Shown piece by piece: positions 18,217-62,730 of a stretch of DNA of 64,000 nucleotides. Positions within the stretch are counted from its first letter, which is position 1. Each line of letters begins with the position of its first letter. The DNA comes from Endomicrobiia bacterium. GTDB lineage: Bacteria > Elusimicrobiota > Endomicrobiia > DTEH01. The notes below the pieces were generated by a model. That model was not told the origin of the DNA, did no database searches, and worked only from the letters and a program-made list of their open reading frames with translations. The position numbers and the translations under genes were made by a program. The stretch is taken from NCBI GenBank assembly GCA_025059805.1, contig JANXDG010000030.1, positions 10,646 through 74,645 on the forward strand, given 5' to 3'.

Positions 18217-18239
18217 TTTTTACTACATTATATTATGAC

Positions 18240-20836: not shown

Positions 20837-20837
20837 T

Positions 20838-36308: not shown

Positions 36309-38555
36309 TTATAATTCTATAACTAATCCATCTTTAGTATGAACTATCTTCTTAATCCCCCGTATTACATTGCTATATTGTATCTCTACACTGATATTAC
36401 CAAAAATCTTAGTAGTGAAAGAACTTCTGCGTAATGTACTACCTATAAACTTTTTGTTTCCTGTAATTATGTAAAATAACAACTTTATATCCTTGTTGCG
36501 AACAAATAAATGTTCAATTTGTTTTACATCTTCCTCATATTTACCGTGTCTTGGTAATTGAACAAGTAGGAATTTGTCTTTTAATTTCATCATTGAAAGT
36601 TTTTCTAAAATGTATTCTCCAGGTAGGTCATTTGAAAGAACTATTATTGCATTTTTATATCTTACAGTAACAAGCAACGAGTTGTAATCTGTAAGTTTTA
36701 TTTCATCACTGGCTGTAGTTACATAATTTGGTATTACTGTTATCTCCACATTATCGTTGACTAAAATTGTCCTTGATGTATGTATGATTTCATATTCAAT
36801 TTTTCTTTTTAATACATCTATAAAAATTTCTTTATAATCACTAGTCCACGGTGGTACATAGTTTGAGGTATATAATTTCTTAACTTTAAAATTAGATATT
36901 ATATACTTAGCGCCACCGTAATGAGGATAATGTGCATGTGTAATAATAAGGTAATCAATTTTATTTAAACTATCTTTGTACAACTCAGGTATAATTTTAA
37001 ACTTTGCAACTTTTTCGTCACCACCCGTATCTATAAGCACTGTCCTACCACATGGAGTTTTTATCAAAACACTCTCACCAAAATTTAGATCAAAAAATTT
37101 AATCTTAAATATCCTTTTTTTAAAAATTGAATTGCTAAAAATTAGAATTCCTGTTGATAAAATCAAAATTCCTAAATACAAAATTAAACTTTTTTTCTTT
37201 ATTAATTTCGCTATAGCAACTGTTAGTAAGTAGTAAATAATAATCGCATAAGAACTCGGTGTTGTTATGTTTAATTTAGCATATGGTAGATTAGCAAAAA
37301 ACTTTACAGTGGATAAAAATACTTCACCTAAAATTCCAACAGTTTGCCATAAAACTGATATATAACCTGAGGATAAAAACTCTACCAAATATGATATCAT
37401 CCCAAGCCATAATAGTAAACAAGTCAAAGGAATTACAAAAATGTTAGATACTATACTTACTGTGGAAACTTTGTTAAAATAATATATAATCAGAGGTAGT
37501 ATCATAATTTGAGCAGAAAATGTGGTAATGAAAAGTTTCACAAAATATTGAAAAACAATGTTTTTATTTTCAATAGATGACTTTATGTGTTGATAAAAAA
37601 ATGGATAAAAATATACTATACCGAAACACGCTGCGAACGATAACTGAAACGAAGGATTAAACAAACTTCGTGGCGAAAACAATAATATTATAAACGCTGC
37701 TAAAATTAGAGAGTAGATACTATTTTGTTTTTGTTTCAAAAGATTCGCAGCAGCAATAGTGATAACAATTATCGTTGCACGGACAACTGGCGATGAACAA
37801 CCGGTAATAAACATATAAAATAATACAACAATACAACTCAATATAATTTTAAATTCATATCTTAAAAAAGTTAACTTTAACAAAAAGTATGTCAATATAA
37901 ACACAAATCCTACATGAAGTCCGCTTACCACTAACACATGTGCTACGCCAGCATCCTGGAAATATATTTTTACATCTTTAATCTCTTCATCCTCATACCC
38001 CAAAATAACTCGTAAAATTACACTATTTATAGGCGAGTTAAGTTTTTTATTAGATATTTCTACAAGTGTTTGTTTAACTTTAGTTGTAATAAAATATAAT
38101 TGTCTTAAACACTGGCTAACAAAATTTTGATTACCAAAATTTTGCTCCAATTTTACTGCATAGCCAATTTTTTGTACATCATAACTGTTAAATAAAAACA
38201 AATCATAGTTGTTTTGTAAATTAATTGTTCTACATAGTGTTAACACTGATACCTGGTCACCATAGCTTATGTTCTCAAATTCTTCAGTGTGCCTGTCAGT
38301 CTGTATATAATACTTACTACCATTTCTGGTTTTAATTATAAAAATCTTTTTATTTTTCTCTTCTTTTATAAAATATACTTTTCCTTTAACTAACTCATAC
38401 TGGTAAGGTTCTTTTCTTAGGTACAACAAGTTGTCATATATTATTCTGTATTCAACTATAAGAAAGAATGTATAGAAAAGCATACTAGAAGGTAGTAACA
38501 AAAGTAAGAATTTCCAACTATGATTTTTATTCAAACTGGAAAGATTTTTCACCAA
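36309..38555 (-). CDS. comEC: ComEC/Rec2-family protein (canonical DUF4131 + Competence + MBL architecture), second paralog
   Basis: DAGVAHVLVVSGLHVGFVF Competence-domain motif, a polytopic TM region, and a C-terminal MBL domain (ITHAHYPHYGG). Confidence 0.75.
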   Translation of the reverse strand: MVKNLSSLNKNHSWKFLLLLLPSSMLFYTFFLIVEYRIIYDNLLYLRKEPYQYELVKGKVYFIKEEKNKKIFIIKTRNGSKYYIQTDRHTEEFENISYGDQVSVLTLCRTINLQNNYDLFLFNSYDVQKIGYAVKLEQNFGNQNFVSQCLRQLYFITTKVKQTLVEISNKKLNSPINSVILRVILGYEDEEIKDVKIYFQDAGVAHVLVVSGLHVGFVFILTYFLLKLTFLRYEFKIILSCIVVLFYMFITGCSSPVVRATIIVITIAAANLLKQKQNSIYSLILAAFIILLFSPRSLFNPSFQLSFAACFGIVYFYPFFYQHIKSSIENKNIVFQYFVKLFITTFSAQIMILPLIIYYFNKVSTVSIVSNIFVIPLTCLLLWLGMISYLVEFLSSGYISVLWQTVGILGEVFLSTVKFFANLPYAKLNITTPSSYAIIIYYLLTVAIAKLIKKKSLILYLGILILSTGILIFSNSIFKKRIFKIKFFDLNFGESVLIKTPCGRTVLIDTGGDEKVAKFKIIPELYKDSLNKIDYLIITHAHYPHYGGAKYIISNFKVKKLYTSNYVPPWTSDYKEIFIDVLKRKIEYEIIHTSRTILVNDNVEITVIPNYVTTASDEIKLTDYNSLLVTVRYKNAIIVLSNDLPGEYILEKLSMMKLKDKFLLVQLPRHGKYEEDVKQIEHLFVRNKDIKLLFYIITGNKKFIGSTLRRSSFTTKIFGNISVEIQYSNVIRGIKKIVHTKDGLVIEL

Positions 38556-42852: not shown

Positions 42853-44787
42853 CTATTTAGATAAATATTTTGTTACATTAGGAAATAAAGAAAGGTCCGT
42901 ATGTGGAATAAATAGTGTTGAACTATATTCATTCATATACATAGACATGCTTGAAAGATCAATATATGTCATTTTTTGTTGTGTTTTATAAATTCTATCT
43001 CTTGCAGATTGTGATAATGTATATAAAATAGCACCTAACAAAGATGTATTGCCAGCAACAACAAACTTACTCTCTTCAATATCAGGTAAAAGTCCTAATA
43101 TCTGTGCTTTCTTTATATCAATATAACTTCCAAATCCACCACAGATAAAAATTTTCTTTATGTCAGAAAAACTTAAATGTAAATACTTCAATAACGTATG
43201 TAATCCATGAAAAATAGCACCTTTTGACCTCAGTATATTTTGGATATCACTCTCAGAGATCACAATATCTCTATTGTTGCCAGTATGTTCTTTACCGACA
43301 AGTATAAATTCATTTTCACCTATTTCATTTTGTCTTATTCTTTTTTGTAGTTGTGGTTCTAATATGCTTTTATTAAATTTACCAGAACGATCTATTATCC
43401 CAGCTTTGTATAACTCAGCAGGTAAACCTATTAATCCAGAACCACAAATTCCAATAGGTTTTGTATTACCGATCACTTTGTAGTCAACCCTGCCATTCAC
43501 AATTTTTACATCTTCAATTGCACCTTCTACTGCTAACATCCCTGAAGAAATATCTATCCCCTCAAATGCAGGGCCACAAGAACAAGCTGCAGCTACAAGA
43601 AAATCCTTATTCCCAACAACAATTTCTCCATTAGTACCTAAATCAAGTAAAACACATATGTCATCAGAAACATCTATTTGACAAGAAACAACCCCGCCTA
43701 CTATATCACCTCCAATGTAAGACGCTACCAATGGTAAACAGTAAACTCGTGCTTCTGGATTTATCATCAACCCGAGTTGTTTTGCAACAGTAACCGGTGG
43801 TCTATTTACCACAGGGACATATGGTTCCCGACGGATATACTTAGCAGGAAGATTTAGTAAGAAATGTATCATTGTTGTATTCCCTGCAAAAACTACAGCA
43901 TATATATCTCTTAAATCAACTCCGTTTTCTGCTATTATATAGTATATAAGTTCGTTAATTGTTTCTAATACTTTTTGATTAAGCATTTCAAGACCTGAAG
44001 TTTCTTCAGAATATACAATGCGCGTTATAATATCAGCACCAAAAGTAATCTGTTTGTTTATAGAACATACGCTTCCTAATATTTTAAAATCAGTAATATT
44101 TAAAAGTGTCACAACTATTGTTGTAGTTCCAACATCTACAGCTATGGCATACAAGTTTCTTTTTTCTTTGCGAACTTCACATATTTCATACAATAGCTCT
44201 GGAAATAGATATTTTTGAACTAATACCACTGTGATGTTCCAGTTGTTCACACGCAAAATTTCTGGTAAAGTTTTAACAACTGAATAGTCGTCAATAATAA
44301 CTTTTAATTTCTCTTGTTGTGAAACGTAAGTTACTAACCGGTCCGTATCTGAAACATAATCCTCAATAGAAGGGGATGGAAGGTTTAAATGTATCATCTT
44401 TGCTATAGGAGAAATATCAAATCCATCTAAAACAAGTTTTTTTTCCAAATTGTGTTTATCAAAATATGAACTAGTAATAAAAACATCTTTTAATTTCTTA
44501 ATTTCATCTATTGGATTTAATAATTCTACAACAATATCAGACAACGGCTGTGTTTCACACGCAAGAACTATATTTTGTTGTTTCTCTTCCTCTGAAATAA
44601 ACTGAGAAAATTTGGTAACAAAATTGCCGTTTACAATTTTTATTTTGCACTTACCACAAACTCCTTTCCCACCACAGGAAGCAAAAATGTTTACACCAGA
44701 TTTAATCATTGCCTGTAGTAGATCTTGACCCTCAGCTACTTCAATTTCTTTGTTTAATGAAAGCACTTTTACTTTAAATGAATTCAT
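42853..44787 (-). CDS. RACo-type ATP-dependent reductive activase of corrinoid proteins (N-terminal plant-type 2Fe-2S ferredoxin + ASKHA ATPase domain)
   Basis: N-terminal [14 protein letters not shown] 2Fe-2S motif and a C-terminal ASKHA-fold region ([10 protein letters not shown]...LDLGTNGE). It is 644 aa and lies immediately downstream of acsC, as RACo genes typically do. Confidence 0.72.
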
Positions 44788-44813
44788 CTGTTGTTAATAA
44801 ATATTACAAAATC

Positions 44814-46145
44814 TTATCCGAAAAGTGATTTTAAAAACTTCGGTATACCTGAAGCTTCTTTTGGTCCTACTATAACTTCCCAGTCAGGTAAAAGATCGTT
44901 TAACTTCCCACTCATTACTGCAACATAGCCTGGAATTATTATTTTCTTATGTTTAACTTTATCATCTACACTTTCTTTTTTTAAAGAATCTACAATTTTT
45001 TCTGGTGTAAATTTTTCTGCTGCCCATGCTGTGAGTACAGAAAGTCCGTCTGTGTCAACTATTAGAAGCCATGAAGGTATCTTTGAATTTAAGATTTCAG
45101 GTTCAACTGAGAAATAAGTTAACGAAAAATTTGTAGTTACAAGCAACGGCGAATTTTCTGATGGTTGTCCTCCAATCTTGTAAAGCTTAGGTTCTACAGT
45201 TACAGGTCGTTGTGGATCCGTATAAATGTTTAATCTCAAAGTTATTAATGCTAAATGTACTTCTGGTTTTACTGTGTTTAAACAAACTATGCTACCGTAT
45301 TTCAAAATTGCTAGAGATCCTAACGATAGATTCGTATTAATATCTTCAGATTCAATAACAACCATCGTTGGGTATCCCACTACTCTCAAATTTTTTTTCA
45401 ATGCTAATCTTCTTACCTGTGTAAGATATTCTATTAGTTGACGATAACTTTTTACCGGGATGTTAAGTATTAGTTCTCTGTATCCCGTCGTAGTAACTAC
45501 AAGATTAACCCTGTTTGCAATTTCATCTAATGTATCACCATTTATTACAACTGGTATATTATATGATTTTGCCACCATCATAATTTTTTCTATTTTATCG
45601 TCATTGTCAAGATGTCCGATTAAAGAAAATTTTCGTACTTTCAACATCTCTTCTATCAATGATATATCACTGCACAACAGTCCTATCGGTACTTCAGGAT
45701 CAATCTGTGATACTATATTTCTTATACGTTCAATATTATTTTGTTCACATTTTAAAATTAACAATTCAGTATGATATTCTTGACCTACACGAATAAAATG
45801 CAAGTTTTTAAACCCGCTAATCCTTTTTGATATTTCATCATCACCAAATGTATCTTTTATCAAAACAGCTAATAAACATGGATTAACAAATGTTTTTTCG
45901 TGACGGAATAACACTGTCTCACCACCAATTTTGTATTTATCAGCAATTGTTATTGTTCGTATTGGCGGTTCAGCAGCTTCAGCTAATATTCTTTTTGTTT
46001 CTTCAGAAACATAAGGACATTTATCTAACGAAACTTTTTTTGCGGCGAGTGCCATTGCAAACGCTAAACATGTAGGAAAGCCACACTCTTTACAGTTTGT
46101 CTTAGGCAAGAGTTTATATATTTCAAGTCCTGTAAGTGTTGGCAT
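44814..46145 (-). CDS. acsC: Corrinoid iron-sulfur protein large subunit (CO dehydrogenase/acetyl-CoA synthase gamma subunit family, AcsC/CdhE-like)
   Basis: N-terminal 4Fe-4S motif LTGLEIYKLLPKTNCKECGFPTCLAFAMALAAKK..LDKCPYVSEE. The C-terminal B12-binding region NIYTDPQRPV...NSPLLVTTNFSLTYFSVE...KIPSWLLIVDTDGLSVLTAWAAEKF...WEVIVGPKEASGI closely resembles my recollection of Moorella AcsC. 443 aa. Confidence 0.8.
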   Translation of the reverse strand: MPTLTGLEIYKLLPKTNCKECGFPTCLAFAMALAAKKVSLDKCPYVSEETKRILAEAAEPPIRTITIADKYKIGGETVLFRHEKTFVNPCLLAVLIKDTFGDDEISKRISGFKNLHFIRVGQEYHTELLILKCEQNNIERIRNIVSQIDPEVPIGLLCSDISLIEEMLKVRKFSLIGHLDNDDKIEKIMMVAKSYNIPVVINGDTLDEIANRVNLVVTTTGYRELILNIPVKSYRQLIEYLTQVRRLALKKNLRVVGYPTMVVIESEDINTNLSLGSLAILKYGSIVCLNTVKPEVHLALITLRLNIYTDPQRPVTVEPKLYKIGGQPSENSPLLVTTNFSLTYFSVEPEILNSKIPSWLLIVDTDGLSVLTAWAAEKFTPEKIVDSLKKESVDDKVKHKKIIIPGYVAVMSGKLNDLLPDWEVIVGPKEASGIPKFLKSLFG

Positions 46146-46167: not shown

Positions 46168-46740
46168 TTACCTAGGATTTAAAAATATTTCAAGTTCCAT
46201 AATACCTTCAGGGATAACAGAAACCTCTGAAATATAAGGTTGACAATCTATATGTTGGACATATATTTTAAGCTTTCTGTCTGAACTTTCAGATATTACT
46301 GAATATTCAAACTCTCCTTTAGTATTAGTATAACATGTATCAACTGAACCGTCTCTGTATTCAAATATAACTTCTGCATTTGACGCTGGTACATTTCTTG
46401 GATAAGTTTTTATAAAAATTTTACCTTTTATTATTGTACGCGAACTTTTGTGGTCACTACTAACTTGTGTTGAACGAGCTCTTATTTTTGTAATAACATT
46501 TACTGCGTAACCTAATGTAGCTATAAAGAAATTAACTACTGATATAGAAACTGCAATAATAACGAGTAGTTTATGAATATTTGAAATGTTTTTAAATTTA
46601 TATGTTAATAAAGATAATACCGCAATCACACATAACACACAAATGTTAATAATTATCAACCATATCTTGCCATACAAAAAAGGTAATAAACAACTATTCA
46701 ACAATGTTATTAAAAGCAATATCAATATTCCTACATACAT
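46168..46740 (-). CDS. Membrane protein with C-terminal carboxypeptidase-regulatory-like (CarbopepD_reg) beta-sandwich domain
   Basis: Two or three N-terminal TM helices. The C-terminal IKGKIFIKTYP...SNAEVIFEYRDGSVDTCYTNTKGEFEY is typical of CarbopepD_reg_2 domains. Confidence 0.45.
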   Translation of the reverse strand: MYVGILILLLITLLNSCLLPFLYGKIWLIIINICVLCVIAVLSLLTYKFKNISNIHKLLVIIAVSISVVNFFIATLGYAVNVITKIRARSTQVSSDHKSSRTIIKGKIFIKTYPRNVPASNAEVIFEYRDGSVDTCYTNTKGEFEYSVISESSDRKLKIYVQHIDCQPYISEVSVIPEGIMELEIFLNPR

Positions 46741-47991: not shown

Positions 47992-50322
47992 TTAGACTGT
48001 TACAACAATTTGATGTAATTTGTGTTTTGAAAGGAAGGGGACTAAATTTCCGCTAAGCTGTTCTCCATCAACTGTCAATTTTGGTTGGTTTACTTTTTTG
48101 TTAATAATTAAAAACCTGTATTTTGTATTCTTAATTATTAACTCCACTTTTGCTTTCTTAATAAATTCAGGTAAACACGGTGAAACTAAAATTCCATTAA
48201 GACAAGGTCTTATACCAAAAACATATTCTAATGTAACTTTAAACAACCATTGTGCAGAACCTGTATACCATGACCACCCACCTTGACCAAAATATGAACT
48301 ATTAGGTCCGTAAATATCACCACAAGTTACATATGGTTCTGTTTTGTAAAGGTCTGGGTTAGCAGTTGACCTAAAAATTGGATTAAGATTTTTGTAAATA
48401 TACTCAACTTTATCTTTACGTTGTAACAAACACTCCATAAGCAGTGCCCAGCAACCCGCATGAACATACAACCCGCCATTTTCTCGTACACCAGGCGAGT
48501 ATTCAGTTAAATAACCTATTTCTTTATCTGGTTTTGAGTATGCTGGGTATAACAATACTGGTCCGTATTTATGGTATAAATATTTCTCTAAAGAATTTAA
48601 AATCTTTTTCTGTCTGTCTTTATCATCAACTATACCGTTCATTATTGCCCAGGTTTGAGTATTAAGAAATATCATACCTTCTTTATTTTTCCTTGAACCA
48701 ATTAAATCTCCGTTATCTTTTGTAGCACACCAGAACCATTCTCCGTCCCAGCAATATTTGTTAATATTTTCTTTAAGTTTCACTGAGACTTTTTTATACT
48801 TTTCTTTCAAACTATTTGGTACAAACTTTACTTTAAAATGTTCTAAAATTTCTACAAATTCTTTCAAAATACCATATAAAAATTCTGCAAGCCAGACACT
48901 TTCTCCCTTCCAGTTTTTCCCTGCAGCAGAAAGACCATCGTTCCAATCACCACAACCTATAAGTGGTAATCCTCGTTTTGAGAATCTTTTCAATGACAAC
49001 TCTATCGCCTTAATGCAATGTAAATAAAGTGCATATTTCTTTTTATCATCTACAAACTCAACTTTCTCTTTCAGAATATCAATATCACCCGTTAACTTAA
49101 TATACTCATTTGTCACAAATACAAGCCAAAGATAAGGATCTGAATGTTTACTTATAGGACCGTCTTCTGTTACCGGCATCCACCAGTGGTACACATTGCC
49201 ATTTTTAAACTGATGTTTCGCATGGAGTAAAATTTGTTCTTTTGTCTTTTTTGGATCAATATACAAATAAATCATACTATCCTGTAACTGATCTCTATAA
49301 CCATATCCACCTGCTGGCTGGAAATATGCTGTTCTTGCGTTCATTCTGCAGGAAATAGTTTGATACTTTAACCAATAGTTTGTCATTATATCTATTTCTT
49401 TAACTCCTGTTTCTACTTTAACAGTAGATACCAAATCAAGCCAAAATTTTTTAGTTTGTTCAAATAGGACATCTATATTTTTCTCATATTTCTGCACTAA
49501 CATTTTAGCTTGATTCTGATTCTTTGCAACTCCAACTAAAAAAATAACCTGTTTTTCTTCTCCAGGTTGAAAATTTAGTTTACATTTAAAACTTGCAACT
49601 GGATCCACTGTCCTGCCTACAACATTGCTTAATGAAGAAACCTCAAGAGCTTTTGGATTATAAACACTTCTGTAGTTGCCTATAAAATCTTGTTTATCAG
49701 TAGTAAATCTTTCAGGTTTGGTTGAACAACTATGAAATGAAAATAAATCAAGTAAGCTATTTACTTTCTTAGCAAATATTATACCATTGGAATCATACCC
49801 TGTTTCAAAAAATAACTTGTGGAATTCGTTATGTACAGCAGCAGGATCTCTCAACGACCATTCAAGATAAGAATAGAGTTCAATCTCACGAGGTAACACT
49901 TTGTTATTTTTAATTTTTAACCACCAAACCTCAGTTGTATCTTCTGGAGGTACAAATATTGTTGCTTCTATTCTAAAATTATTATAGTTGTTTATAATCT
50001 TTGTATAACCTAAACCGTGAATACATAAGTAGTTTCTAACCTTACCCAACGGTTTATAGCCTAAGGACCATATTCTGTTATTTTCTTTAAAATAAAAAAA
50101 TTTGCCGTATTCTTCCTTAACTAAATCTTGAAACCATTGTGTGATCCTGAATAATGCTGCGTTCTTATAAAACGTATAACCTGTCCCAAGATTAGTAACT
50201 ACACAACCAAACTCTTTAGGACAAATAATGTTACTCCATGGTTTTGGTGTTAACGCTGTAATCACATACTCTTTACCTTCATCAATAAAATATCCATATT
50301 TTGTTTTTAACATTTTTTTCAT
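47992..50322 (-). CDS. GH94-family glycoside phosphorylase (cellobiose/cellodextrin/chitobiose-phosphorylase-like)
   Basis: N-terminus KYGYFIDEGKEYVITALTPKPWSNII...GTGYTFYKNAALFRITQW matches the GH94 N-terminal beta-sandwich. Also has a CGDWNDGLS motif and an (alpha/alpha)6 core; 776 aa. Confidence 0.7.
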   Translation of the reverse strand: MKKMLKTKYGYFIDEGKEYVITALTPKPWSNIICPKEFGCVVTNLGTGYTFYKNAALFRITQWFQDLVKEEYGKFFYFKENNRIWSLGYKPLGKVRNYLCIHGLGYTKIINNYNNFRIEATIFVPPEDTTEVWWLKIKNNKVLPREIELYSYLEWSLRDPAAVHNEFHKLFFETGYDSNGIIFAKKVNSLLDLFSFHSCSTKPERFTTDKQDFIGNYRSVYNPKALEVSSLSNVVGRTVDPVASFKCKLNFQPGEEKQVIFLVGVAKNQNQAKMLVQKYEKNIDVLFEQTKKFWLDLVSTVKVETGVKEIDIMTNYWLKYQTISCRMNARTAYFQPAGGYGYRDQLQDSMIYLYIDPKKTKEQILLHAKHQFKNGNVYHWWMPVTEDGPISKHSDPYLWLVFVTNEYIKLTGDIDILKEKVEFVDDKKKYALYLHCIKAIELSLKRFSKRGLPLIGCGDWNDGLSAAGKNWKGESVWLAEFLYGILKEFVEILEHFKVKFVPNSLKEKYKKVSVKLKENINKYCWDGEWFWCATKDNGDLIGSRKNKEGMIFLNTQTWAIMNGIVDDKDRQKKILNSLEKYLYHKYGPVLLYPAYSKPDKEIGYLTEYSPGVRENGGLYVHAGCWALLMECLLQRKDKVEYIYKNLNPIFRSTANPDLYKTEPYVTCGDIYGPNSSYFGQGGWSWYTGSAQWLFKVTLEYVFGIRPCLNGILVSPCLPEFIKKAKVELIIKNTKYRFLIINKKVNQPKLTVDGEQLSGNLVPFLSKHKLHQIVVTV

Positions 50323-50359
50323 AATTTCTCCTGTGAAAATTTAACCTTTTACAAATTAA

Positions 50360-52750
50360 TCATAGTATTACAGTTAAATAATTATCTTTCCCAACTTGAA
50401 GTTCAGAAACAAAAATTTTCAAAATTCCATTCTCGTACTGCCATTTGGTAGAAGTATTGGATTCTACCTTTTTTGGTCTTTTAGAAACTTTCAAGCATAA
50501 CTCGCCGCTGCTAACATTGCCATTAATTGAAAAACTTAATTTATTTTTTGACTTTAAATATTTCAAGATTTCAATACTGCCATAACGCAAAATTATGTTT
50601 TCTTCCAATGGTATATTCAGAGGTAATACCAGTGAGCTTCTTTGTCTCATTTGCGTATTACCAATGCTCGGGATCCTCGTCTTATTTTTTTCACCAGGAA
50701 GAGACAAACTTATCACTACTTTCTTATCAACTTCGTGATAGTTAAAAACATATAAAAAACCGAAGGTTTCATTTTCTCTTAACACTGCTATAATATCACT
50801 AAAAGGTTCAATTTGAATCCTACGTTTTACACCAGCAAGTTTTATAATTTTATCTACTAAACTTATATGATAATCAAAAGTATGATTTATTCCAAAACCT
50901 ACAATTATTACTTTTCCTTTACCTATTTTCCTTATAAATGCAGATGGTTCACCGGTTTTTGTCCTTGCAATAATTTCATTTTTTGCAATATTATCAAAAA
51001 TTTGTGTGGTTCCGCTTACAACAAAAATTTCTTCATCCTTAAAGTATACCCATTTTGTTTCAACTTCTTTACAAATTTTAACACCGATTTTGTCTAATAA
51101 AAAAGTCTCTTTTTCACTCATTAGATTTTTAGTTGGTAACTTAGGATTGAGAATCAAACTTCCGCCATCAAGTAAATATCTGTACAGTTTTTCCTGTACT
51201 TGTTTATCCATAAAATCTAAACCAAACACAAACAAGAAAGGATGCAATTTAAGTTCTTCTGATGAAATTTTTTCAAGATCAATAATATCATAACTATATC
51301 CTGCGAGTTGAAGCAATCTAGCGAACCCGTCAAAGAAAAATGTTGTTCTGAGATTTTCAAGTTTATTCACAAATTCGCCATCTAATAACTCAGTAGCATA
51401 ATATGGTGCATAAAAGCCAATTGTTATATCATTATATTTCTTAGTCTGAGACATAAATTCACCAAAAGTTTTTACTAAAAGTCCAAACTTTTGCATTGGT
51501 ATGAAATGTTCTTTTATTTCACCAGTAGAACTTACTGGTGCCTGCCATTCGTGATATCTACCAAACGCTCCCGTACCTTCTGGATTTATACCGCCAGAAA
51601 ACATATAAGCGTTAACACCAGCAAGGCCCGACGCAGTTGACAGTTTTAGGTTAAGTTCAACATCTGAAGGATAAATTTTAGGTCTATCTGACAGTTTCCC
51701 TGTTTGCAATTCACAACATATTGATGGTACATTTTCAGTAGTTATCATTCTTACAACTTCTGTTGTAATTAAAACATCGTGAAAATTGTCATAGTCAAGA
51801 CGGCGCATCTGGTATGCACCACCGAATATTACTTCAGGGACATATTTTGTGAATTCTCTAAACATTATAGTTGTTGTTGGACTATAAATCCCTCTGCCAC
51901 GTACGTCAAAATCATAAAATTGTGGTATGTTCGCAACAACAGGTATGTTTATCCCAGATTTATTCACTAGTTTAAATAAAAACTTGTAGTATCTTCCATA
52001 GTAATCACTATAAAAATTCATCCAGTCGTAATAAATTTGATAGCATGTTTCTTTCGCAATATTATCCTGTGGTTGACGAAGTTCATCAAAACTTTTGTAT
52101 TTCGTTTTATATACTTTGTTAAGGTAATCAATATCCTTATATTTGTTTTTCAAAAATTCTACATACATCTTTTCGGTATTCTCAGAACGTTCTACAGCTT
52201 TGTGTAACCAGTGAACCATCCCTATCTCATTACAGAGTTGAAGTAAAATAATATTACCACCTTTTGTTATCTGATATTTTTTGATGATCTCTAAAACATT
52301 GTTATACCATCGTTCAACAAATTTTAAATACGTTGAATTGTGATAAGATATCAACGTAGCGTGTGGTAAACTACCTAAATCTTTCCCTTTGACAAATACT
52401 TCTGGGTATTCTTCACAGAGCCATCTCGGTAAACCTTCGTATACAAGTTCTGCATTTGATACAGGGCCTATCCTTGCTATAAAATAAAGTCCCATATCAT
52501 TTACAAGTTTTAAAAAATCAACTATGTCTTTAAAATTAAATTCACCTTCTTTACTTTCATGGAAACACCAGGGAATATATGACGAAACTGTGTTAAGTCC
52601 TGCTTGTTTTGCTCGCAATAAATGTAGTTTCCAAAACTTCCTAGGTATCCTAAAATAATGTATCTCACCAGAATAAATAAAGAATGGTCTTTGATTAAGA
52701 TAAAAACAACTATTCTTTCTAACTTCGGTTTGCATAAGTAATCCCCTCAC
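50360..52750 (-). CDS. GH35-family beta-galactosidase
   Basis: FFIYSGEIHYFRIPRKFWKLHLLRAKQAGLNTVSSYIPWCFHESKEGEFNF matches the GH35 N-terminus. LQLCNEIG corresponds to the ENEYG acid/base motif. 796 aa. Confidence 0.75.
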   Translation of the reverse strand: MRGLLMQTEVRKNSCFYLNQRPFFIYSGEIHYFRIPRKFWKLHLLRAKQAGLNTVSSYIPWCFHESKEGEFNFKDIVDFLKLVNDMGLYFIARIGPVSNAELVYEGLPRWLCEEYPEVFVKGKDLGSLPHATLISYHNSTYLKFVERWYNNVLEIIKKYQITKGGNIILLQLCNEIGMVHWLHKAVERSENTEKMYVEFLKNKYKDIDYLNKVYKTKYKSFDELRQPQDNIAKETCYQIYYDWMNFYSDYYGRYYKFLFKLVNKSGINIPVVANIPQFYDFDVRGRGIYSPTTTIMFREFTKYVPEVIFGGAYQMRRLDYDNFHDVLITTEVVRMITTENVPSICCELQTGKLSDRPKIYPSDVELNLKLSTASGLAGVNAYMFSGGINPEGTGAFGRYHEWQAPVSSTGEIKEHFIPMQKFGLLVKTFGEFMSQTKKYNDITIGFYAPYYATELLDGEFVNKLENLRTTFFFDGFARLLQLAGYSYDIIDLEKISSEELKLHPFLFVFGLDFMDKQVQEKLYRYLLDGGSLILNPKLPTKNLMSEKETFLLDKIGVKICKEVETKWVYFKDEEIFVVSGTTQIFDNIAKNEIIARTKTGEPSAFIRKIGKGKVIIVGFGINHTFDYHISLVDKIIKLAGVKRRIQIEPFSDIIAVLRENETFGFLYVFNYHEVDKKVVISLSLPGEKNKTRIPSIGNTQMRQRSSLVLPLNIPLEENIILRYGSIEILKYLKSKNKLSFSINGNVSSGELCLKVSKRPKKVESNTSTKWQYENGILKIFVSELQVGKDNYLTVIL

Positions 52751-52805
52751 TTTCCGAAAGAAAAAGTGATTTTAATTTTCAGTATAAGATAAGAGAAACT
52801 ATATT

Positions 52806-53681
52806 TTATCCTTTTAATCCTGTGTGGGCAAAACTTTCAATAATATATCTTTGTGCAAATAAATAAATAATAATGATTGGTAACACTACTATAACAGCAC
52901 CTGCCATCAACAAACCGTATTCAGTAGTGTACTCACCAGATAAATTTGCTAAAGCAACTGTCAAAGTATATTTTCTCTCAGATGTCATAACTATCAATGG
53001 CCATAAAAAGTCATTCCATGTACCCATAAACGAAAACATAGCAAGTGTTGCTAATACAGGTTTGCATAAAGGAAGAACTATCTTCCAAAAAATCATAAAA
53101 TCAGAACAACCGTCAATCCTCGCAGCGTCAATTAAATCTTCAGGAATTGTTAACATAAACTGTCGGATAAGAAATATTCCGTAAACATTTGCTGCTGCAG
53201 GCAAAATTAATCCTAAATATGAATTTAATAATCCTAAATATTTAAGCAAAAGGAAAACAGGGATCATTGTCATCTGTCCTGGAATCATCATTGTAGCAAG
53301 CAGTAAGGTAAATATCTTATCCTTGCCTGCAAAATTGTATTTTGCGAATGCAAATGCTGCAAGTGAATTAAAAAATAAACTTATAATAGGAATTGTGAAG
53401 GCAACTATAACACTGTTTAGAAAACTACGCCAAAAGTTTATCCCTATAGCACCTTTCTCACGTCGTACTTCTTCAGGTTCTATATGGAATATACGCAGGT
53501 AATTTTCCAATGTTGGTTTTTTAGGTATAATCTGTGGTGTTTTTGTAAATATTGCTTCTTTACTTTTAAAAGATGTGGACAACATCCATATAAATGGCAA
53601 CATCGTGATTACTAAACCAAGAATTAAAAATATGTGGACTTGCCATCTTCTTATTATTTCGCCGATATCTAAATTTTTCAT
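52806..53681 (-). CDS. Carbohydrate ABC transporter permease (MalG/CUT1 type)
   Basis: Six TM helices and the EAA-loop motif DAARIDGCSDFMIFWKIVLP. Confidence 0.85.
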   Translation of the reverse strand: MKNLDIGEIIRRWQVHIFLILGLVITMLPFIWMLSTSFKSKEAIFTKTPQIIPKKPTLENYLRIFHIEPEEVRREKGAIGINFWRSFLNSVIVAFTIPIISLFFNSLAAFAFAKYNFAGKDKIFTLLLATMMIPGQMTMIPVFLLLKYLGLLNSYLGLILPAAANVYGIFLIRQFMLTIPEDLIDAARIDGCSDFMIFWKIVLPLCKPVLATLAMFSFMGTWNDFLWPLIVMTSERKYTLTVALANLSGEYTTEYGLLMAGAVIVVLPIIIIYLFAQRYIIESFAHTGLKG

Positions 53682-53690
53682 AACTAAATC

Positions 53691-55937
53691 TCAATAGAAT
53701 TTAGTTTTTTGAAATCTTAATTGTACTAGCGTAAACACAAATATTATGCTAAACAGAACGTATGCTGTTGCAGATGAAAAACCAAGTTTGAAAAATTTAA
53801 ATCCTTGATTGTACATATAGAGTACTACTGAAATTGTACTATTCATAGGACCACCTTGCGTCATAATATACGGTTCTGCAAAAAACTGAAAATAACCAAT
53901 GACAGAAGTTATTGTAATAAAAAGTGTTGTAGGTTTCAAACCCGGTAATGTTATGTGCCATACTATTTGACCTTTATTTGCTCCATCTACTGCAGCTGCT
54001 TCATACAAAGATTCTGGTATAGCCTGAAGTCCAGCTAAAAATATTACCATGTTATAGCCAAAATTTTTCCATGTTGCCATAAGAATCAATGATGGTAAAG
54101 CAAGCCTCGTACTGTTAAGCCAATCTTGTGGTTCTAAACCAATTAATGTTATAATGCTATTTATTAGACCAAAGTTAGGATCATACAACCATTTCCATAT
54201 TACTGCTACTGCAACAAGCGAAGTTATCACTGGCATAAAATATCCTGCACGAAAGAAAGATCTCAGTTTTATAAACTTTTCATTCAATATCAATGCTACA
54301 ATCAAAGCAATAAAAATGTTAAGTGGCACACCTAGAAATACATATAAAAATGTATTTCTCAAGGATTTCCAAAATACGGGGTCTTTTACTAACAGTTTAT
54401 AGTTTTCAATACCTATAAACACTAACTTTTGAGGATTTGCAATAGAATAAATGTCATAATTAGTCAAACTTAACATAAATGAAGCAATTATAGGTATAAA
54501 AAGAAAAACTACCAGAATACATACCGCAGGTAGTATAAATAAATAAGCAATATTAGAACTTCTTCCAAAAGACGTTTCTGCAGCAGGTTTACGCAAAAAT
54601 ATTAGAAATATTATGACGAAAAGCATTATTAATCCTATTAATAACAAAATACCTATTCTGGATGGTTTTATGTACTTCTCTAGTATCGTATTAATTTCTT
54701 TATCTAGTATTCTCAATGTATCTTCTATTGGCGCGTTTTCTCTAATAATAAGTTCCATCTTCTGACCAATAACATACGCAATTTGTTCCCATTCTGGGAT
54801 GTTCGGTGGACCTTTAGCATCTTCTAACTGTTTCAAGAAAGCTTTCATCATTGGCTTATCATCAAAATACTTGTGATACCATGCACTTCTTATAGCAGGA
54901 AGGTCTGTAGTAAGTTTGTACCATTCAACTTGATTTTCTGGCCGCGACATAAACTCTATAAACTTCCATGCAACATCTTTACGTTGTGATTTCTTAAATA
55001 TTACAAGATTACATCCACCAACAAATGAAGTATACTTTTTTGATTTTTTATCCTTTGTCCATAATGGACTTACAAACCATCTACCTTCAATCTCTGCACA
55101 TTCTTTACTGACAAGTTCTATCATCCACGGTCCTGAAACAAACATGCAGAAATATCCGGTTCTGAACGCATGAAAGATATCAATATCTGCCTGTGCACCA
55201 ATTGGTGCAATTTTATGTTTGTTAAATATATCATAGTAAAACTTCACCGCTTCAACAAACTTAGGTGTAAGAACCAATGATTTCTTATTATCTTCTGTAA
55301 GAAATTCAGCATCGTTTTGCCAAACAAAGAAACCCAACTCTGTCCAAATACCACTGCCACCAGAAGGTAAGTTTATAGCCCAACGGTCAATCCTACCATC
55401 GTTGTTCAAATCTTTTGTTAATTTTTTACCTGCGTCTATGAGTTCATCCCAGGTTCTCGGTGGATGGTCGTATCCTACAGATTTTAACAAATCAGTTCTG
55501 TAAAATAAAATTCTTGTATCTACATACCATGGTATACCATAAACCTTTCCATTAAAAACACAAGTGTTCCAGGAACCACTGAAATATTTTTCTTTAGAAA
55601 TAACCTTAGAGTTTTGTATAAATTCATCAAGTGGTTCTAGTGCTTCCATTGCATAAAATTCTGACATCCAGGTTGTACCTAGCTGACATACATCAGGTGG
55701 TATCCCGCCTACCACCGCAGTCAAAAGTTTTTCATGTGCAGCACCCCAAGGAATTGGCTGAACTACAACTTTTACACCAGGATTTTCTTGCTCAAACCTT
55801 TTTGCCATCTCTGGCAATTTTCTTCCTTCAGCACCCATTGCCCATACCGTAAGTATAGTTTCATTCGCTAAAGCAAAACAAGTTGACAAAATAGTAAAAG
55901 TTAATATGTTAACCAATCTAATGATTTTTCTTTCCAT
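53691..55937 (-). CDS. Fused carbohydrate ABC transporter substrate-binding protein + permease (SBP family 1 domain fused to MalF/UgpA-type TM domain)
   Basis: Signal peptide (MERKIIRLVNILTFTILSTCFALA), then an about 400-aa SBP_bac_1-like domain, then a six-TM permease with EAAAVDGANKGQ. The ORF-track start at 56039 is TTG, so the start is refined to ATG at 55935-55937. Single continuous ORF. Confidence 0.72.
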   Translation of the reverse strand: MERKIIRLVNILTFTILSTCFALANETILTVWAMGAEGRKLPEMAKRFEQENPGVKVVVQPIPWGAAHEKLLTAVVGGIPPDVCQLGTTWMSEFYAMEALEPLDEFIQNSKVISKEKYFSGSWNTCVFNGKVYGIPWYVDTRILFYRTDLLKSVGYDHPPRTWDELIDAGKKLTKDLNNDGRIDRWAINLPSGGSGIWTELGFFVWQNDAEFLTEDNKKSLVLTPKFVEAVKFYYDIFNKHKIAPIGAQADIDIFHAFRTGYFCMFVSGPWMIELVSKECAEIEGRWFVSPLWTKDKKSKKYTSFVGGCNLVIFKKSQRKDVAWKFIEFMSRPENQVEWYKLTTDLPAIRSAWYHKYFDDKPMMKAFLKQLEDAKGPPNIPEWEQIAYVIGQKMELIIRENAPIEDTLRILDKEINTILEKYIKPSRIGILLLIGLIMLFVIIFLIFLRKPAAETSFGRSSNIAYLFILPAVCILVVFLFIPIIASFMLSLTNYDIYSIANPQKLVFIGIENYKLLVKDPVFWKSLRNTFLYVFLGVPLNIFIALIVALILNEKFIKLRSFFRAGYFMPVITSLVAVAVIWKWLYDPNFGLINSIITLIGLEPQDWLNSTRLALPSLILMATWKNFGYNMVIFLAGLQAIPESLYEAAAVDGANKGQIVWHITLPGLKPTTLFITITSVIGYFQFFAEPYIMTQGGPMNSTISVVLYMYNQGFKFFKLGFSSATAYVLFSIIFVFTLVQLRFQKTKFY

Positions 55938-56068
55938 CTTTTTTCTCTGTTGTAAATTTTTGTTCGGCTTAAGATTTTTCCTAAACTGTCCTACTAGCTT
56001 TAAGGAATATACAACTTGTTGAACAACACAAAAATACAAAATTTCAAGTTAATTTTCATCACATTTGA

Positions 56069-58447
56069 CTACACAGTCACTTCCACTTTGTGTTCTTTAC
56101 CGTCATTAACAATTGGTATTATATCACCTTTTAGAGATTTGCCATCAAGTTTTACAGTTTTTACACTGTAACCATTACCACTCTTATTTTTTATTTCTAT
56201 ATGATATACATCATTACGAATTTCCCGTATTATTTTTACTTTTTTCCATCCAGGTGGTAAACAAGGATCAACACGTAAGCCGTTAATCTCAGGTCTTACA
56301 CCTATCATCCATTGTGTTGCAGCTACAAATAACCAATCAGCTGAACCTGTCAACCAAGTGAACGCACCTTCACCATAACGTGGATTACCCGGTCCTATTA
56401 GATACTCTGGTAAAACATATGGTTCTGTTTTAAACACTTCTATGTTCTTATTCCTACTAAGTGGTAATAATTTTACAAAAGTTTCGTATGCCTGTCTTGC
56501 TCTTTTAAGTTTTAAATCTGCCATTATTTTAAACGCACCTGCATGAGAAAAAATAGCAGCGTTCTCTTTTGTACCAACAGCAAATGTTGTTATTCTTCCG
56601 ATACGAGGGTTGTATACAGTATATGCTGGTTTAAACAAAACAGGTCCATAAGGTGTATCAAGTTCACTATCTATAATTTTCAATATTTTTTCTAATTTAT
56701 TTTCATCAGGTATTTCTGCAAGTATTGCCCATGTTTGTGCATTGAGTTGAATATTACCTTCCTTATTCTTCTTTGAGCCAACAGGTTCTCCATAATCGTT
56801 AAATGCGTAAATGTACCAACTACCATCCCATGCATATTTGTTTATCAAATTTTTCATATATTCATAATTTTTCCTGCATTTATCAACAGTTTGTTTATCT
56901 CCGATAATATCTGCTAATTCTTGTAAATGTTTAAGTGCAACACAAAGGCCCATACCAAGCCATACACTTTCACCTTTACCTAAAATACCAGTTCTGTCAA
57001 AAGCGTCGTTCCAATCTTGCGTACCAATAAGTGGTAATCCGCGTTTACTCTTCGCTACATTTAACAAAAACATAACAGCACGTTTTATGTGTTCATAAAG
57101 TTTTGAATATCCACCATCATAGTATTTCACCTTCTTATGCAAAATCTTAACATCCCCTGTTTCTTTCACATATGCGGTGGCTAAAATTGGTAACCATATT
57201 GGAAAATCAGAAGGTGGAGTATGAGTTGTAGGACCTGTCTCAAGTGACCATCCTGGCAACGGCTGGCCAGTTCTACGTTGATGCTCTGTAAGTTTTATTA
57301 ATATTCTCTTTGAATATTCTGGGTTTAAAGAAACCATTGCCCAGGCGTCCTGTGCAGTGTTTCTATACCCAAACTCGCCACCACCCTCATGGTAAAACGT
57401 AGCACTTCTTCCCCAATAGTTGTTCATATAAATTTGGTACTTAAGCCAAATGTTAACCATTAAATTAAAATCTTTGTCTGGTGTCTCAACATTAACAGTG
57501 TTAAGAATTGTGTTTTTCCAGTGTGCCTTCGTATTTTCAAATATTTGAATGACAGTTTTCACATCACGATATTTATTAACAAGTTTAATTATCTGAGCTT
57601 TGTTTTTTGAAATACCTATTGTTATACAAAAAATTTTTTCTTCACCTGCAGATAATCTTAGTTCATGTTGCAAAACACCTACCATCCCAACACCTGTGAC
57701 TCTATCCGTATTATTACATCGCCCAGAAATAACAGCCTGCGGTGCCTCATAATTTTTTTGCCTTCCATAGAAAAATTCTTCATCAATATCAAAACTATTA
57801 ACTTCTAAACTTGAAGACATAAAACATATGTATGGCCAGATGCGGTTTCTCCATGGTGTACGATATACATAGATTATCTGATTTTTATAATCATATTCGC
57901 CTCTGTAAGTCAATGCATATATATTTCTGATTGATAAATCTTCAAAGTAATCACCTAACATCCATTCAACCACAGGAAAAGTCCTAAGTATCTTTCTATC
58001 ACCACTTTTGTTTATTATCTTTACAATCCACACCTCTAAAGGTTCATCCTGCGGAACAAAATATGTTATTTCTGTTGTTACACCAAAATTTTCCGAACCT
58101 ATAATTGTATAACCTAATCCATGACGACAGTAATATTTTTTTCTAGTTTTAGTAACTGACCAATACTTACCTGTCTCAACATCGTAAATAAACAAAAATC
58201 TTCCCGGATTTTCGTATAAATAATTTTGTGGAGCCCACCTTGTTATTCTATTTTTTTCACAGTCAAGGTAAAAACTATATCCCGATGCTACCTGAGATAT
58301 TAACAAACAATATCTACCATTTGTTAAATAATTAATCCAGGGCCGGGGTGTGTCTGGTCTTTTTATCACAAACTCAGTTCCATCTTTTGAAAAATTACCA
58401 TATTTTGTATAACTTGTATTTGTACTCATCTGTCCATCATCCTCCAT
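56069..58447 (-). CDS. GH94-family glycoside phosphorylase, second paralog
   Basis: N-terminus KYGNFSKDGTEFVIKRPDTPRPWINYLTN...ASGYSFYLDCEKNRITRW, and GTQDWNDAFD. 792 aa, paralogous to 47992..50322. Confidence 0.7.
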   Translation of the reverse strand: MEDDGQMSTNTSYTKYGNFSKDGTEFVIKRPDTPRPWINYLTNGRYCLLISQVASGYSFYLDCEKNRITRWAPQNYLYENPGRFLFIYDVETGKYWSVTKTRKKYYCRHGLGYTIIGSENFGVTTEITYFVPQDEPLEVWIVKIINKSGDRKILRTFPVVEWMLGDYFEDLSIRNIYALTYRGEYDYKNQIIYVYRTPWRNRIWPYICFMSSSLEVNSFDIDEEFFYGRQKNYEAPQAVISGRCNNTDRVTGVGMVGVLQHELRLSAGEEKIFCITIGISKNKAQIIKLVNKYRDVKTVIQIFENTKAHWKNTILNTVNVETPDKDFNLMVNIWLKYQIYMNNYWGRSATFYHEGGGEFGYRNTAQDAWAMVSLNPEYSKRILIKLTEHQRRTGQPLPGWSLETGPTTHTPPSDFPIWLPILATAYVKETGDVKILHKKVKYYDGGYSKLYEHIKRAVMFLLNVAKSKRGLPLIGTQDWNDAFDRTGILGKGESVWLGMGLCVALKHLQELADIIGDKQTVDKCRKNYEYMKNLINKYAWDGSWYIYAFNDYGEPVGSKKNKEGNIQLNAQTWAILAEIPDENKLEKILKIIDSELDTPYGPVLFKPAYTVYNPRIGRITTFAVGTKENAAIFSHAGAFKIMADLKLKRARQAYETFVKLLPLSRNKNIEVFKTEPYVLPEYLIGPGNPRYGEGAFTWLTGSADWLFVAATQWMIGVRPEINGLRVDPCLPPGWKKVKIIREIRNDVYHIEIKNKSGNGYSVKTVKLDGKSLKGDIIPIVNDGKEHKVEVTV

Positions 58448-58462
58448 AGAATTACAAAATAA

Positions 58463-59989
58463 CTATTTACGAAGTGGTGATTCAGTATGTGCAAAATATA
58501 ACCACGCGGTCGGTGCTACACCATACATCGTTGTGTGCCAGATACCACCCTGGTGAAACCTTTCATGAGAATGTTGTAGTGCACCATCCTCACGTTGTTG
58601 ACGATTAATATTATCAAGGTAAAACTGTGCATTTCTGCCTCCAGCACAAACATATTGTAGTGTCCCCTCATTCCATACTGTGAACGGTCCAGAAGTATCA
58701 AACCCAACTATTCTATCATCAAAAGTTGTACATTTCAAATTTTCCTCGGCAAATGATAAAGCCCAACGTGCTTTCTCCTCTTCACCTATAGCTTTCAAAA
58801 ATTCTGCACCCCAAGTTTGTGGATCTAAATAAACTTCAGGATTATTTCTTCCGGTATTAAAACGTTTTTCGGTTTCGTTCCATAAGTTTGACAGTATAAA
58901 ATTTTTAACTCGCTCTGCTTCAGTATGATATCCGTTGTAAAAAAATGCCCACCAACAATCAAGATTACCTTCTGTAGAATCGTGAATGGAACCATCTTCG
59001 TGCATTTTAGATTTTAACCATTCACACGCTTTTTTCGCAACCGGGAGATATTCTACATCATTTGTAATCCTTGAATATTTTGCAATTGCAAACGACATCC
59101 ACGCTACTGAACCTATCCATAGATTATCTGTTGCTGGCTCACAGGATGTAGATATATAACCATCGTACCAGGAACCGTCAGGATTCTGTAATTTTGCAAA
59201 CACCGCAAGAAGTTTTTTTGCTGCTGTCTTATCTTCATGTGCAAAAACCAAAAGTGCTAACGCTTGATCATAAGTCCATGCGTAGGCTGGCTCCTCGTTT
59301 TCAAACGAAGCAACAAGTCCAGTATCTTTTTGTTGCTTTTTAATCCATTGTGCAGCTTTCTTAGCTATTGATGGATTTTTCTTTACAGTATAAAATTTTT
59401 CCTGTGGAACTTTTGGTAATTTAACTTTAGGTGGTGATTTAAAAAATGTAAGGTCATCAATCAAGACATATCCTTTTTGACTGCGAAGACCTGTTACTGC
59501 GAAATACACTTTTTTTATATTAGCAGTGTCAAGGTTTTTATCACTTCCGCCCCAGAAGTATTCAAGATCACTATAAAGTAGTTTTATCTCTTTCCAATTA
59601 CTGAGCGAGGTAATATCACTAAAAGTTTTTCCATACACAGTACCGTCCATATCTTCAATCTTAAATTGTAGATTCGCAGGTTCACCACCACCACGTAAGA
59701 AAAACTTTATACTATTATATTCTGAAATGTCTTTATAAAAACTTTTTTCTATCTGTGCCCACCGACCTTTATTCCCAAGTTCAAAAACTATTTTTATAGC
59801 ATTATCTTTGATCCCTTTATCTAAGAAAATTTTTATCTTACTACCTTGAGGTTTATTCATTTCTTCTGCTGAAGCTGTCCATAGAAACAAACTTTCCATA
59901 CTATCAACAAAATCAGCAGTTAAGAATTTTGTACTGCTAAACCAAAGAAATATTATTACAACAGTTAATTTTTTAGTTTTGCTCAACAT
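58463..59989 (-). CDS. Secreted protein: N-terminal CBM-like beta-sandwich (EYFWGGSD repeat type) + C-terminal (alpha/alpha)6-barrel-like putative glycanase
   Basis: Signal peptide. The N-terminal domain shares the LxYWWGGD motif with the tandem domains of 62731..63771. The C-terminal YDQALALLVFAHED and W-rich helices suggest an (alpha/alpha)6 toroid. Confidence 0.5.
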   Translation of the reverse strand: MLSKTKKLTVVIIFLWFSSTKFLTADFVDSMESLFLWTASAEEMNKPQGSKIKIFLDKGIKDNAIKIVFELGNKGRWAQIEKSFYKDISEYNSIKFFLRGGGEPANLQFKIEDMDGTVYGKTFSDITSLSNWKEIKLLYSDLEYFWGGSDKNLDTANIKKVYFAVTGLRSQKGYVLIDDLTFFKSPPKVKLPKVPQEKFYTVKKNPSIAKKAAQWIKKQQKDTGLVASFENEEPAYAWTYDQALALLVFAHEDKTAAKKLLAVFAKLQNPDGSWYDGYISTSCEPATDNLWIGSVAWMSFAIAKYSRITNDVEYLPVAKKACEWLKSKMHEDGSIHDSTEGNLDCWWAFFYNGYHTEAERVKNFILSNLWNETEKRFNTGRNNPEVYLDPQTWGAEFLKAIGEEEKARWALSFAEENLKCTTFDDRIVGFDTSGPFTVWNEGTLQYVCAGGRNAQFYLDNINRQQREDGALQHSHERFHQGGIWHTTMYGVAPTAWLYFAHTESPLRK

Positions 59990-61502: not shown

Positions 61503-61506
61503 CTTT

Positions 61507-62631: not shown

Positions 62632-62730
62632 CTTTTTATATCCTCCGTGATTGTTAACTTCTTCTTTTAGACAGGGCTCGGATTTTAGACAATAAAAATA
62701 ATGACTATCTGTTACTGAAAACCTTAAAAA

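Follow-up and report, generated by a model that had tools for sequence, protein, structure and literature searches.

A corrinoid iron-sulfur protein and its reductive activase encoded apart from the other Wood-Ljungdahl genes in Endomicrobiia

Two adjacent genes of an Endomicrobiia bacterium, acsC and acsV, very probably form an ordinary pair belonging to a Wood-Ljungdahl gene set that is scattered over two loci in Endomicrobiia, with their products working as a corrinoid iron-sulfur protein (CFeSP) and its activase RACo. The genes lie in a stretch of 64,000 nucleotides (assembly GCA_025059805.1, contig JANXDG010000030.1, positions 10,646 to 74,645), which is denoted the window. An earlier note on this DNA described the pair as an orphan CFeSP with its own activase, lacking AcsD, methyltransferase, or carbon monoxide dehydrogenase/acetyl-CoA synthase (CODH/ACS) partners. 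At the level of the genome, this description fails, as both an AcsD (P0143) and an AcsB (P0278) are present. The observations behind the reading proposed here are the identities of the genes, the occurrence of acsD and acsB in the same species, and a two-locus layout in three lineages of metagenome-assembled genomes (MAGs).

The proposed mechanism follows the CFeSP systems of Carboxydothermus and Moorella, and complex formation, direction of flux, and co-expression are expected by homology to them. AcsC would pair with AcsD, the small subunit, whose gene is beside folD elsewhere in the genome, and the heterodimer would carry a methyl group on its corrinoid in the Co(I)/CH3-Co(III) states. The methyl group would move between methyl-tetrahydrofolate, by way of AcsE as known from relatives, and the A-cluster of AcsB. 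RACo, using ATP and a [2Fe-2S] cluster, would re-reduce adventitiously oxidized Co(II) to Co(I). A rearrangement in Endomicrobiia probably separated acsC-acsV from the genes that now stand in a locus rich in folate enzymes (acsE-fhs-acsB-metVF-fchA-...-folD-acsD).

The acsC and RACo genes

The acsC gene (also cdhE; 44814-46145, minus strand) encodes a protein of 443 amino acids that was assigned from profiles, structures, and a neighbor-joining tree. AcsC contains an N-terminal [4Fe-4S] motif, a TIM-barrel domain, and a corrinoid-binding domain at the C-terminus, and the Pfam families FeS (E = 8e-15) and CdhD (E = 3e-72) are both matched above their cutoffs. Membership of the CdhE/AcsC family, on which the earlier identification depended, is upheld by the NCBIfam model NF003195 (‘ACDS subunit gamma’), which gives 483.4 bits (cutoff, 306) and aligns residues 4-440 with positions 3-445 of 450. 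The same residues are colinear, with few gaps, with the large subunits of Carboxydothermus hydrogenoformans in structures 2H9A and 4C1N (E ~3e-118), and also with 4DJD from Moorella thermoacetica and with 9FZY. The close likeness to Moorella AcsC that the earlier note had remarked on is borne out by the 4DJD large subunit over its whole length (E = 2e-103). A protein identical to AcsC is annotated ‘MAG: acetyl-CoA decarbonylase/synthase complex subunit gamma [Endomicrobia bacterium]’.

The residues expected to matter for function are retained. Cys18, Cys21, Cys26, and Cys43, which form the [4Fe-4S] motif, do not vary among 32 aligned homologs, nor does the SVLTAW segment at residues 369-374, including T372. 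We take this threonine to correspond to Thr374 of C. hydrogenoformans, which presumably sits below the corrin. Between detached and canonical AcsC, the aligned ligand and catalytic residues are unchanged. Constraint was judged by this conservation of ligand residues, as the acsC DNA pairs at hand are either >99% or ~70% identical in amino acids, the latter with saturated synonymous divergence. By homology, AcsC of the window is a genuine large subunit of CFeSP, predicted to bind a corrinoid and to cycle between Co(I) and CH3-Co(III).

The gene for RACo, acsV (42853-44787, minus strand), starts 26 nt downstream of acsC and encodes 644 amino acids. Its product carries a [2Fe-2S] ferredoxin domain, a linker, a middle domain, and an ASKHA ATPase domain, with Pfam scores that are all above cutoff (Fer2, 46 bits; RACo_linker, 48; Raco_middle, 193; RACo_C_ter, 303). 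C. hydrogenoformans RACo (PDB 3ZYY_X) aligns with residues 4-638 at E = 2e-156. The cluster cysteines Cys38, Cys44, Cys47, and Cys77 are present, as are the ASKHA motifs DVGTTT at 218 and DLGTNGE at 382. These features agree with the RACo-type 2Fe-2S/ASKHA activase that had been recognized after acsC. The NCBIfam model NF040756, ‘corrinoid activation/regeneration protein AcsV’, is by far the best-scoring model and covers the full length (residues 5-636 on positions 1-632 of 632), and the score of 627.5 bits does not pass the cutoff of 800 set for this narrow, exception-type model. The product is therefore filed under the RACo family generally and not under that NCBIfam name. It is, by homology, RACo, with predicted activity as the reductive activase of the AcsC corrinoid. 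For both proteins, the agreement with these families greatly exceeds what chance would give.

Partner genes elsewhere in the same species

Within the window, the pair has no recognizable partner. Pfam scans of the annotated large open reading frames (47 proteins) found no acsB, acsD, acsE, or cooS (the CODH gene), and tblastn with CooS and AcsE queries gave no match in the 64 kb. The local absence that had prompted the orphan description is thus real. The partners were found on other contigs of the species, of which three further assemblies were compared (GCA_026416555.1, GCA_033581535.1, and the Logan assembly of SRR15826899).

The AcsC protein is encoded on three contigs, which include JAOAEX010000009.1 of GCA_026416555.1 and a contig of Logan SRR15826899. 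The window is 99.93% identical to its Logan counterpart and 99.40% identical to the contig of GCA_026416555.1, and the contigs bearing acsD give a parallel pattern of 99.92% and 99.44%. AcsD homologs were sought by database search with Elusimicrobia AcsD, and several results were labeled Endomicrobia or Endomicrobiia. In all three assemblies of the species, AcsD (P0143; 314 amino acids, PF03599) is encoded directly downstream of folD, on JAOAEX010000068.1 of GCA_026416555.1, on JAVQTB010000003.1 of GCA_033581535.1, and in Logan SRR15826899. The GCA_033581535.1 contig, which is 142 kb long, also carries metF and fchA upstream of folD-acsD.

AcsB was sought by database search with an AcsB sequence reconstructed from a related lineage (locus L094, described below). 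The search found P0278, a 638-residue AcsB cut at the contig end, on the 4.8-kb contig JAOAEX010000061.1 of GCA_026416555.1 (L096), which holds fhs, a radical-SAM gene, and acsB. The GC content is 0.30-0.32 across the acsC, acsD, and acsB loci. The divergence of AcsD parallels that of AcsC, with ~78% identity among Endomicrobiia and ~61-63% to Elusimicrobia. The acsD, acsB, and folate enzyme genes of this species are on other contigs, and the gene set is dispersed rather than orphaned. Of the two explanations that had been put forward for the isolated pair, an unusual split of the Wood-Ljungdahl genes is supported by these contigs and by the two-locus layout of relatives, while a CFeSP-like carrier serving a different methyl transfer has found no positive support.

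Two-locus layout in other Endomicrobiia

The detached pair recurs in related genomes. AcsC homologs 57-72% identical to that of the window were retrieved with their neighborhoods (L003, L004/5, and L006/7; contigs up to 619 kb), and a profile search of genome contigs added L011, the only further Endomicrobiia locus among the matches listed. All of these loci hold the same unit, composed of a homolog of the membrane protein encoded upstream of acsC (denoted TM190), acsC, RACo, and usually then ilvE, with no other acs gene within 10 kb. A few genes downstream of acsC-RACo-ilvE, L004 also carries genes for early tetrapyrrole or corrin precursors (17618-21318), namely cobA/hemD (TP_methylase and HEM4), hemB, and hemL.

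The remaining genes are found at a second locus. In GCA_017880035.1, the detached acsC-RACo locus L003, on a 619-kb contig, is accompanied by L094 on a 1.1-Mb contig, where the order is acsE-fhs-acsB-...-fchA-...-folD-acsD and the AcsD is P0156. GCA_039630545.1 has the detached locus L011 together with L097, which encodes AcsB P0243 and is ordered cooC...acsE-fhs-(fragments)-acsB-RnfC-like/MetV-MetV-metF-fchA-...-folD-acsD. The acsE gene is directly upstream of fhs in both L094 and L097. The metV and metF genes are kept in L097, and both are missing from L094 along with the RnfC-like gene. A further lineage (L099) has the order cooC...fhs-acsB-metV-metF-fchA...folD. At none of these second loci is there a second acsC, so the two loci are complementary. 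The detached acsC-RACo locus and the second locus are parts of one Wood-Ljungdahl gene set.

Two Endomicrobiia lineages share 92% identity in MetF (L091 1-642 and L097 14888-15772), whereas the neighboring FchA, FolD, and AcsD are only 67-78% identical. So high a value for MetF could reflect a recent exchange or exceptionally strong constraint.

Relatives of AcsC and the ancestral operon

Outside Endomicrobiia, the next-closest AcsC proteins (51-54% identity) are those of Elusimicrobia L008 and Omnitrophota L010, which are encoded in the order acsB-acsC-RACo-cooC-acsD-acsE. The same order is found in L013, L024, L029, and others. A search of genome contigs with an AcsC alignment provided 79 further loci from many phyla, among the matches listed and with the source genome absent from them, and these were classified by scripted phmmer. 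Where at least 8 kb of sequence flanks acsC on both sides (37 loci), acsE is near in 34, acsD in 33, and acsB in 29, and only one locus lacks all of AcsB, AcsD, and AcsE nearby.

A phylogeny of AcsC, which had been suggested as a check on the protein, places the window AcsC beside its canonical Elusimicrobia counterpart. In the neighbor-joining tree, the Endomicrobiia sequences are monophyletic and stand next to L008, inside a group rich in Omnitrophota and Planctomycetia. From this position and the operon order of the canonical Elusimicrobia, it follows that the window pair is, by sequence comparison, the middle of the ancestral operon separated by rearrangement, and not a divergent paralog.

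Two other loci could be better candidates for a true orphan AcsC. Both L009 (10001-11356) and L062 (9579-10916) encode AcsC with neither RACo nor an acs partner within 10 kb. In L009, acsC is flanked by a holA-like gene and a gene for a GH38 mannosidase, and the AcsC of L062 (UBA9088) forms the longest branch of the tree. Some Omnitrophota have AcsB reading frames of ~1275 amino acids (L024 6161-9988; L086 8-3847), and the intein/LAGLIDADG Pfam domains of P0290 (1261 amino acids) indicate a putative intein within this acetyl-CoA synthase.

The carbonyl branch and alternative readings

Several findings weigh against an ordinary, dispersed gene set. All genomes are MAGs, and co-residence of the two loci depends on binning; the layout nevertheless recurs in three lineages, in one case with contigs as long as 0.6 and 1.1 Mb. 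The acsE gene is not at the equivalent position in L099, and in the source species none is seen on L096, where the contig ends inside fhs. No intact cooS is present in the window or at any examined Endomicrobiia locus, a result that concerns those loci only. Between fhs and acsB in L097 and L098 is a cooS remnant, spread over three frames and covering C-terminal residues 423-608 of 628. As cooS is seen only as a remnant, the CO source for acetyl-CoA synthesis by this gene set is unproven. Lesions are also found in the acsB of GCA_017880035.1 (L094 2815-4990), with two frameshifts in A-homopolymers (~3735 and ~4775) and, immediately ahead of the SCGCFEC motif, an in-frame TAA (4569-4571). In at least one lineage, the pathway may be undergoing erosion, with acsC and RACo still intact. 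The earlier note had held that a complete acs cluster elsewhere, with this gene as the only acsC, would reduce the pair to part of a split operon. Much of such a cluster exists, in that acsB and acsD were found and the second loci lack acsC; the pieces not seen at the examined loci are cooS and the acsE of the species itself.

The loss of cooS beside acsB bears on how AcsB would be used. The remnant and a radical-SAM fragment beside it (L097/L098 positions 7741-8043 and 9375-9957) are identical in the NCBI MAG (L097) and an independent Logan assembly (L098), so the CODH gene decayed in place. In L094, L096, and L099, cooS is not at the position between fhs and acsB, and the radical-SAM gene is intact in the source species (L096). 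The N-terminal domain of AcsB that contacts CODH (CODH_A_N) is 39% identical to that of Elusimicrobia AcsB, compared with 70% for the remainder of the protein (L094 2839-3744 versus L008 7716-9902). These features fit a CODH-less or reverse-running variant, in which CFeSP, RACo, and AcsB would cleave acetyl-CoA to feed methyl groups into the folate pool or would use exogenous CO, instead of fixing CO2. The genes would have the identities given above, and the difference would be one of physiological role. Dehalococcoides mccartyi offers a proposed precedent, with an incomplete Wood-Ljungdahl pathway in which ACS and CFeSP occur without CODH (PMC11334346). The likeness consists of AcsB and CFeSP genes with no CODH gene detected nearby, and the cooS remnant records the loss of at least one copy.

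We nevertheless regard this variant as unlikely. No cooS is within 10 kb of acsC in 13 of the 37 canonical loci that span 19 kb or more of sequence, and none is seen at the canonical Elusimicrobia locus L008. As canonical loci are often without a nearby cooS, a copy elsewhere in the Endomicrobiia genome is quite possible. The presence of metF, fhs, folD, and fchA differs from Dehalococcoides, and no rescue route for methyl-tetrahydrofolate would be needed. At least some Endomicrobiia lineages keep metF and acsE, and the absence of CODH pertains to the examined loci.

A second possibility, which we hold to be improbable, is that the carbonyl branch is being dismantled, with cooS lost and acsB pseudogenized in at least one lineage, and that the CFeSP, activase, and TM190 are kept as a conserved module. 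If true, this would mean an ACS-independent role for a CFeSP-type carrier, or CODH-free use of ACS in a sugar-fermenting lineage. The ~20 genes that neighbor the damaged L094 acsB look intact, as do acsC, RACo, acsD, and acsE, and the lesions in acsB itself reflect either recent pseudogenization or a local error of long reads. L097 and L099 encode an intact AcsB.

The membrane protein TM190 bears on a third reading. Its gene (46168-46740, minus strand) ends 22 nt upstream of acsC and encodes 190 amino acids with three predicted transmembrane helices and a weak CarboxypepD_reg-like beta domain. Homologs (24-40% identity, 190-212 amino acids) are encoded directly upstream of acsC in all five Endomicrobiia lineages, including L003 9398-9970, L004 9408-9980, L006 9276-9914, and L011 9362-9994, and the outer flanks vary. 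The family is small, as only 13 representative clusters were matched among 1.84 billion proteins. In Pfam searches, TM190 gave only sub-threshold matches to CarboxypepD_reg and PEGA and no recognizable catalytic domain, and its single-sequence AlphaFold model is poor (pLDDT, the predicted local confidence, of 55.6). An HgcA-like reading, with a corrinoid domain and TM190 as its membrane partner, was considered and rejected. The HgcA profiles match weakly (63-79 bits against cutoffs of 275-285), and AcsC is full-length.

The constant company of TM190, and the separation of acsC-RACo from all other acs genes in five lineages (1 of 37 other loci is alike), would suit an ACS-independent methyl carrier. 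CFeSP, as AcsC with or without AcsD, and RACo would then have been recruited to another reaction, possibly with TM190. The three acsB lesions in GCA_017880035.1 point the same way, whereas acsC, RACo, acsD, and acsE there appear intact. However, no alternative methyltransferase (of the MtaA, MtrH, or MtbA type, or a further Pterin_bind protein) adjoins the pair in any lineage, and TM190 is without a recognizable catalytic domain. AcsC is not divergent, as it is ~55% identical to canonical Elusimicrobia AcsC and keeps the invariant residues. AcsB is intact in this species and in two other lineages, and the L094 lesions, some of which fall in A-homopolymers of what is probably a long-read assembly, may be errors. 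Such a recruitment is therefore very unlikely in our judgment.

Finally, it is scarcely credible that the acsD and acsB contigs come from another organism and that the pair is truly orphan. In favor of such a binning artifact, the genomes are all MAGs, and acsB of GCA_026416555.1 stands on a contig of no more than 4.8 kb. Against it, both loci are found in three assemblies of the species, where their strain-level identity patterns match, and again in two further MAG lineages, one of which has them on long contigs (619 kb and 1.1 Mb). The loci also agree in GC content, and AcsD and AcsB have their closest homologs in Elusimicrobia, with a divergence that matches that of AcsC. The two loci are complementary, as acsC is missing from the second.

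The window around the pair

The pair is flanked upstream by genes for a GT4 glycosyltransferase and the 190-residue membrane protein and downstream by ilvE and dnaE, all on one strand with gaps of 1-26 nt. Both reading frames and these flanks are as the earlier note described them. A scan of 38-48.5 kb for promoters and terminators was uninformative in this AT-rich DNA, as it gave 54 promoter-like sites (54.4 expected) and 5 terminators (3.3 expected).

Other parts of the window are concerned with different functions. Positions 47992-63771 (minus strand) hold a glycan-utilization block that contains two GH94 phosphorylases, a GH35/GH42-like enzyme, a glucoamylase-like protein, and ATP-binding cassette (ABC) transporter genes. 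Among the latter is a 782-residue fusion of a solute-binding protein (SBP_bac_1) and a permease domain (53691-56039). Two ComEC-like genes are also present (25127-28525 and 36309-38555, minus strand). One encodes 1132 amino acids with an SNase nuclease and a Competence domain, and the other encodes 748 amino acids with Competence and metallo-beta-lactamase domains.

Relation to known systems and significance

The closest characterized counterparts are the CFeSP (2H9A, 2YCL), the RACo (3ZYY), and the RACo:CFeSP complex (4C1N) of C. hydrogenoformans. Both window proteins are alike to these over their full length, with the same domains, cluster cysteines, and motifs. The differences are that acsC-RACo of the window is outside an acs operon and that acsD, acsB, and fhs are on other contigs. 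The M. thermoacetica CFeSP/methyltransferase complex (4DJD) has a large subunit that is similar over its whole length, and in the window only acsC and the activase gene are adjacent. In Moorella, acsA-acsB-acsC-acsD-acsE are presumably kept together.

The nearest relatives of AcsC, AcsD, and AcsB (54-63% identity) are in Elusimicrobia and Omnitrophota clusters, which share the adjacency of acsC and RACo. Compared with these, the Endomicrobiia operon is broken into acsC-RACo and acsE-fhs-acsB...folD-acsD, and the cooS beside acsB is lost. Described gut members of Endomicrobiia are fermenters. The Wood-Ljungdahl pathway has already been described in the free-living Elusimicrobia lineages VII-IX (Méheust et al., bioRxiv 10.1101/765248). 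Apart from that general report, a search of the literature on CFeSP or ACS of Endomicrobia and Elusimicrobia returned nothing specific to this arrangement.

The apparent orphan is corrected to part of a dispersed, otherwise standard acs gene set with an uncommon layout. Absence of partners within 64 kb tells little where the genes of a pathway are scattered. For free-living Endomicrobiia, the analysis documents Wood-Ljungdahl genes in an unusual two-locus layout. The cooS remnant and the damaged acsB point to a possible erosion of the carbonyl branch, which, if confirmed in complete genomes, would provide a natural series for the role of CFeSP and RACo after the loss of CODH/ACS.

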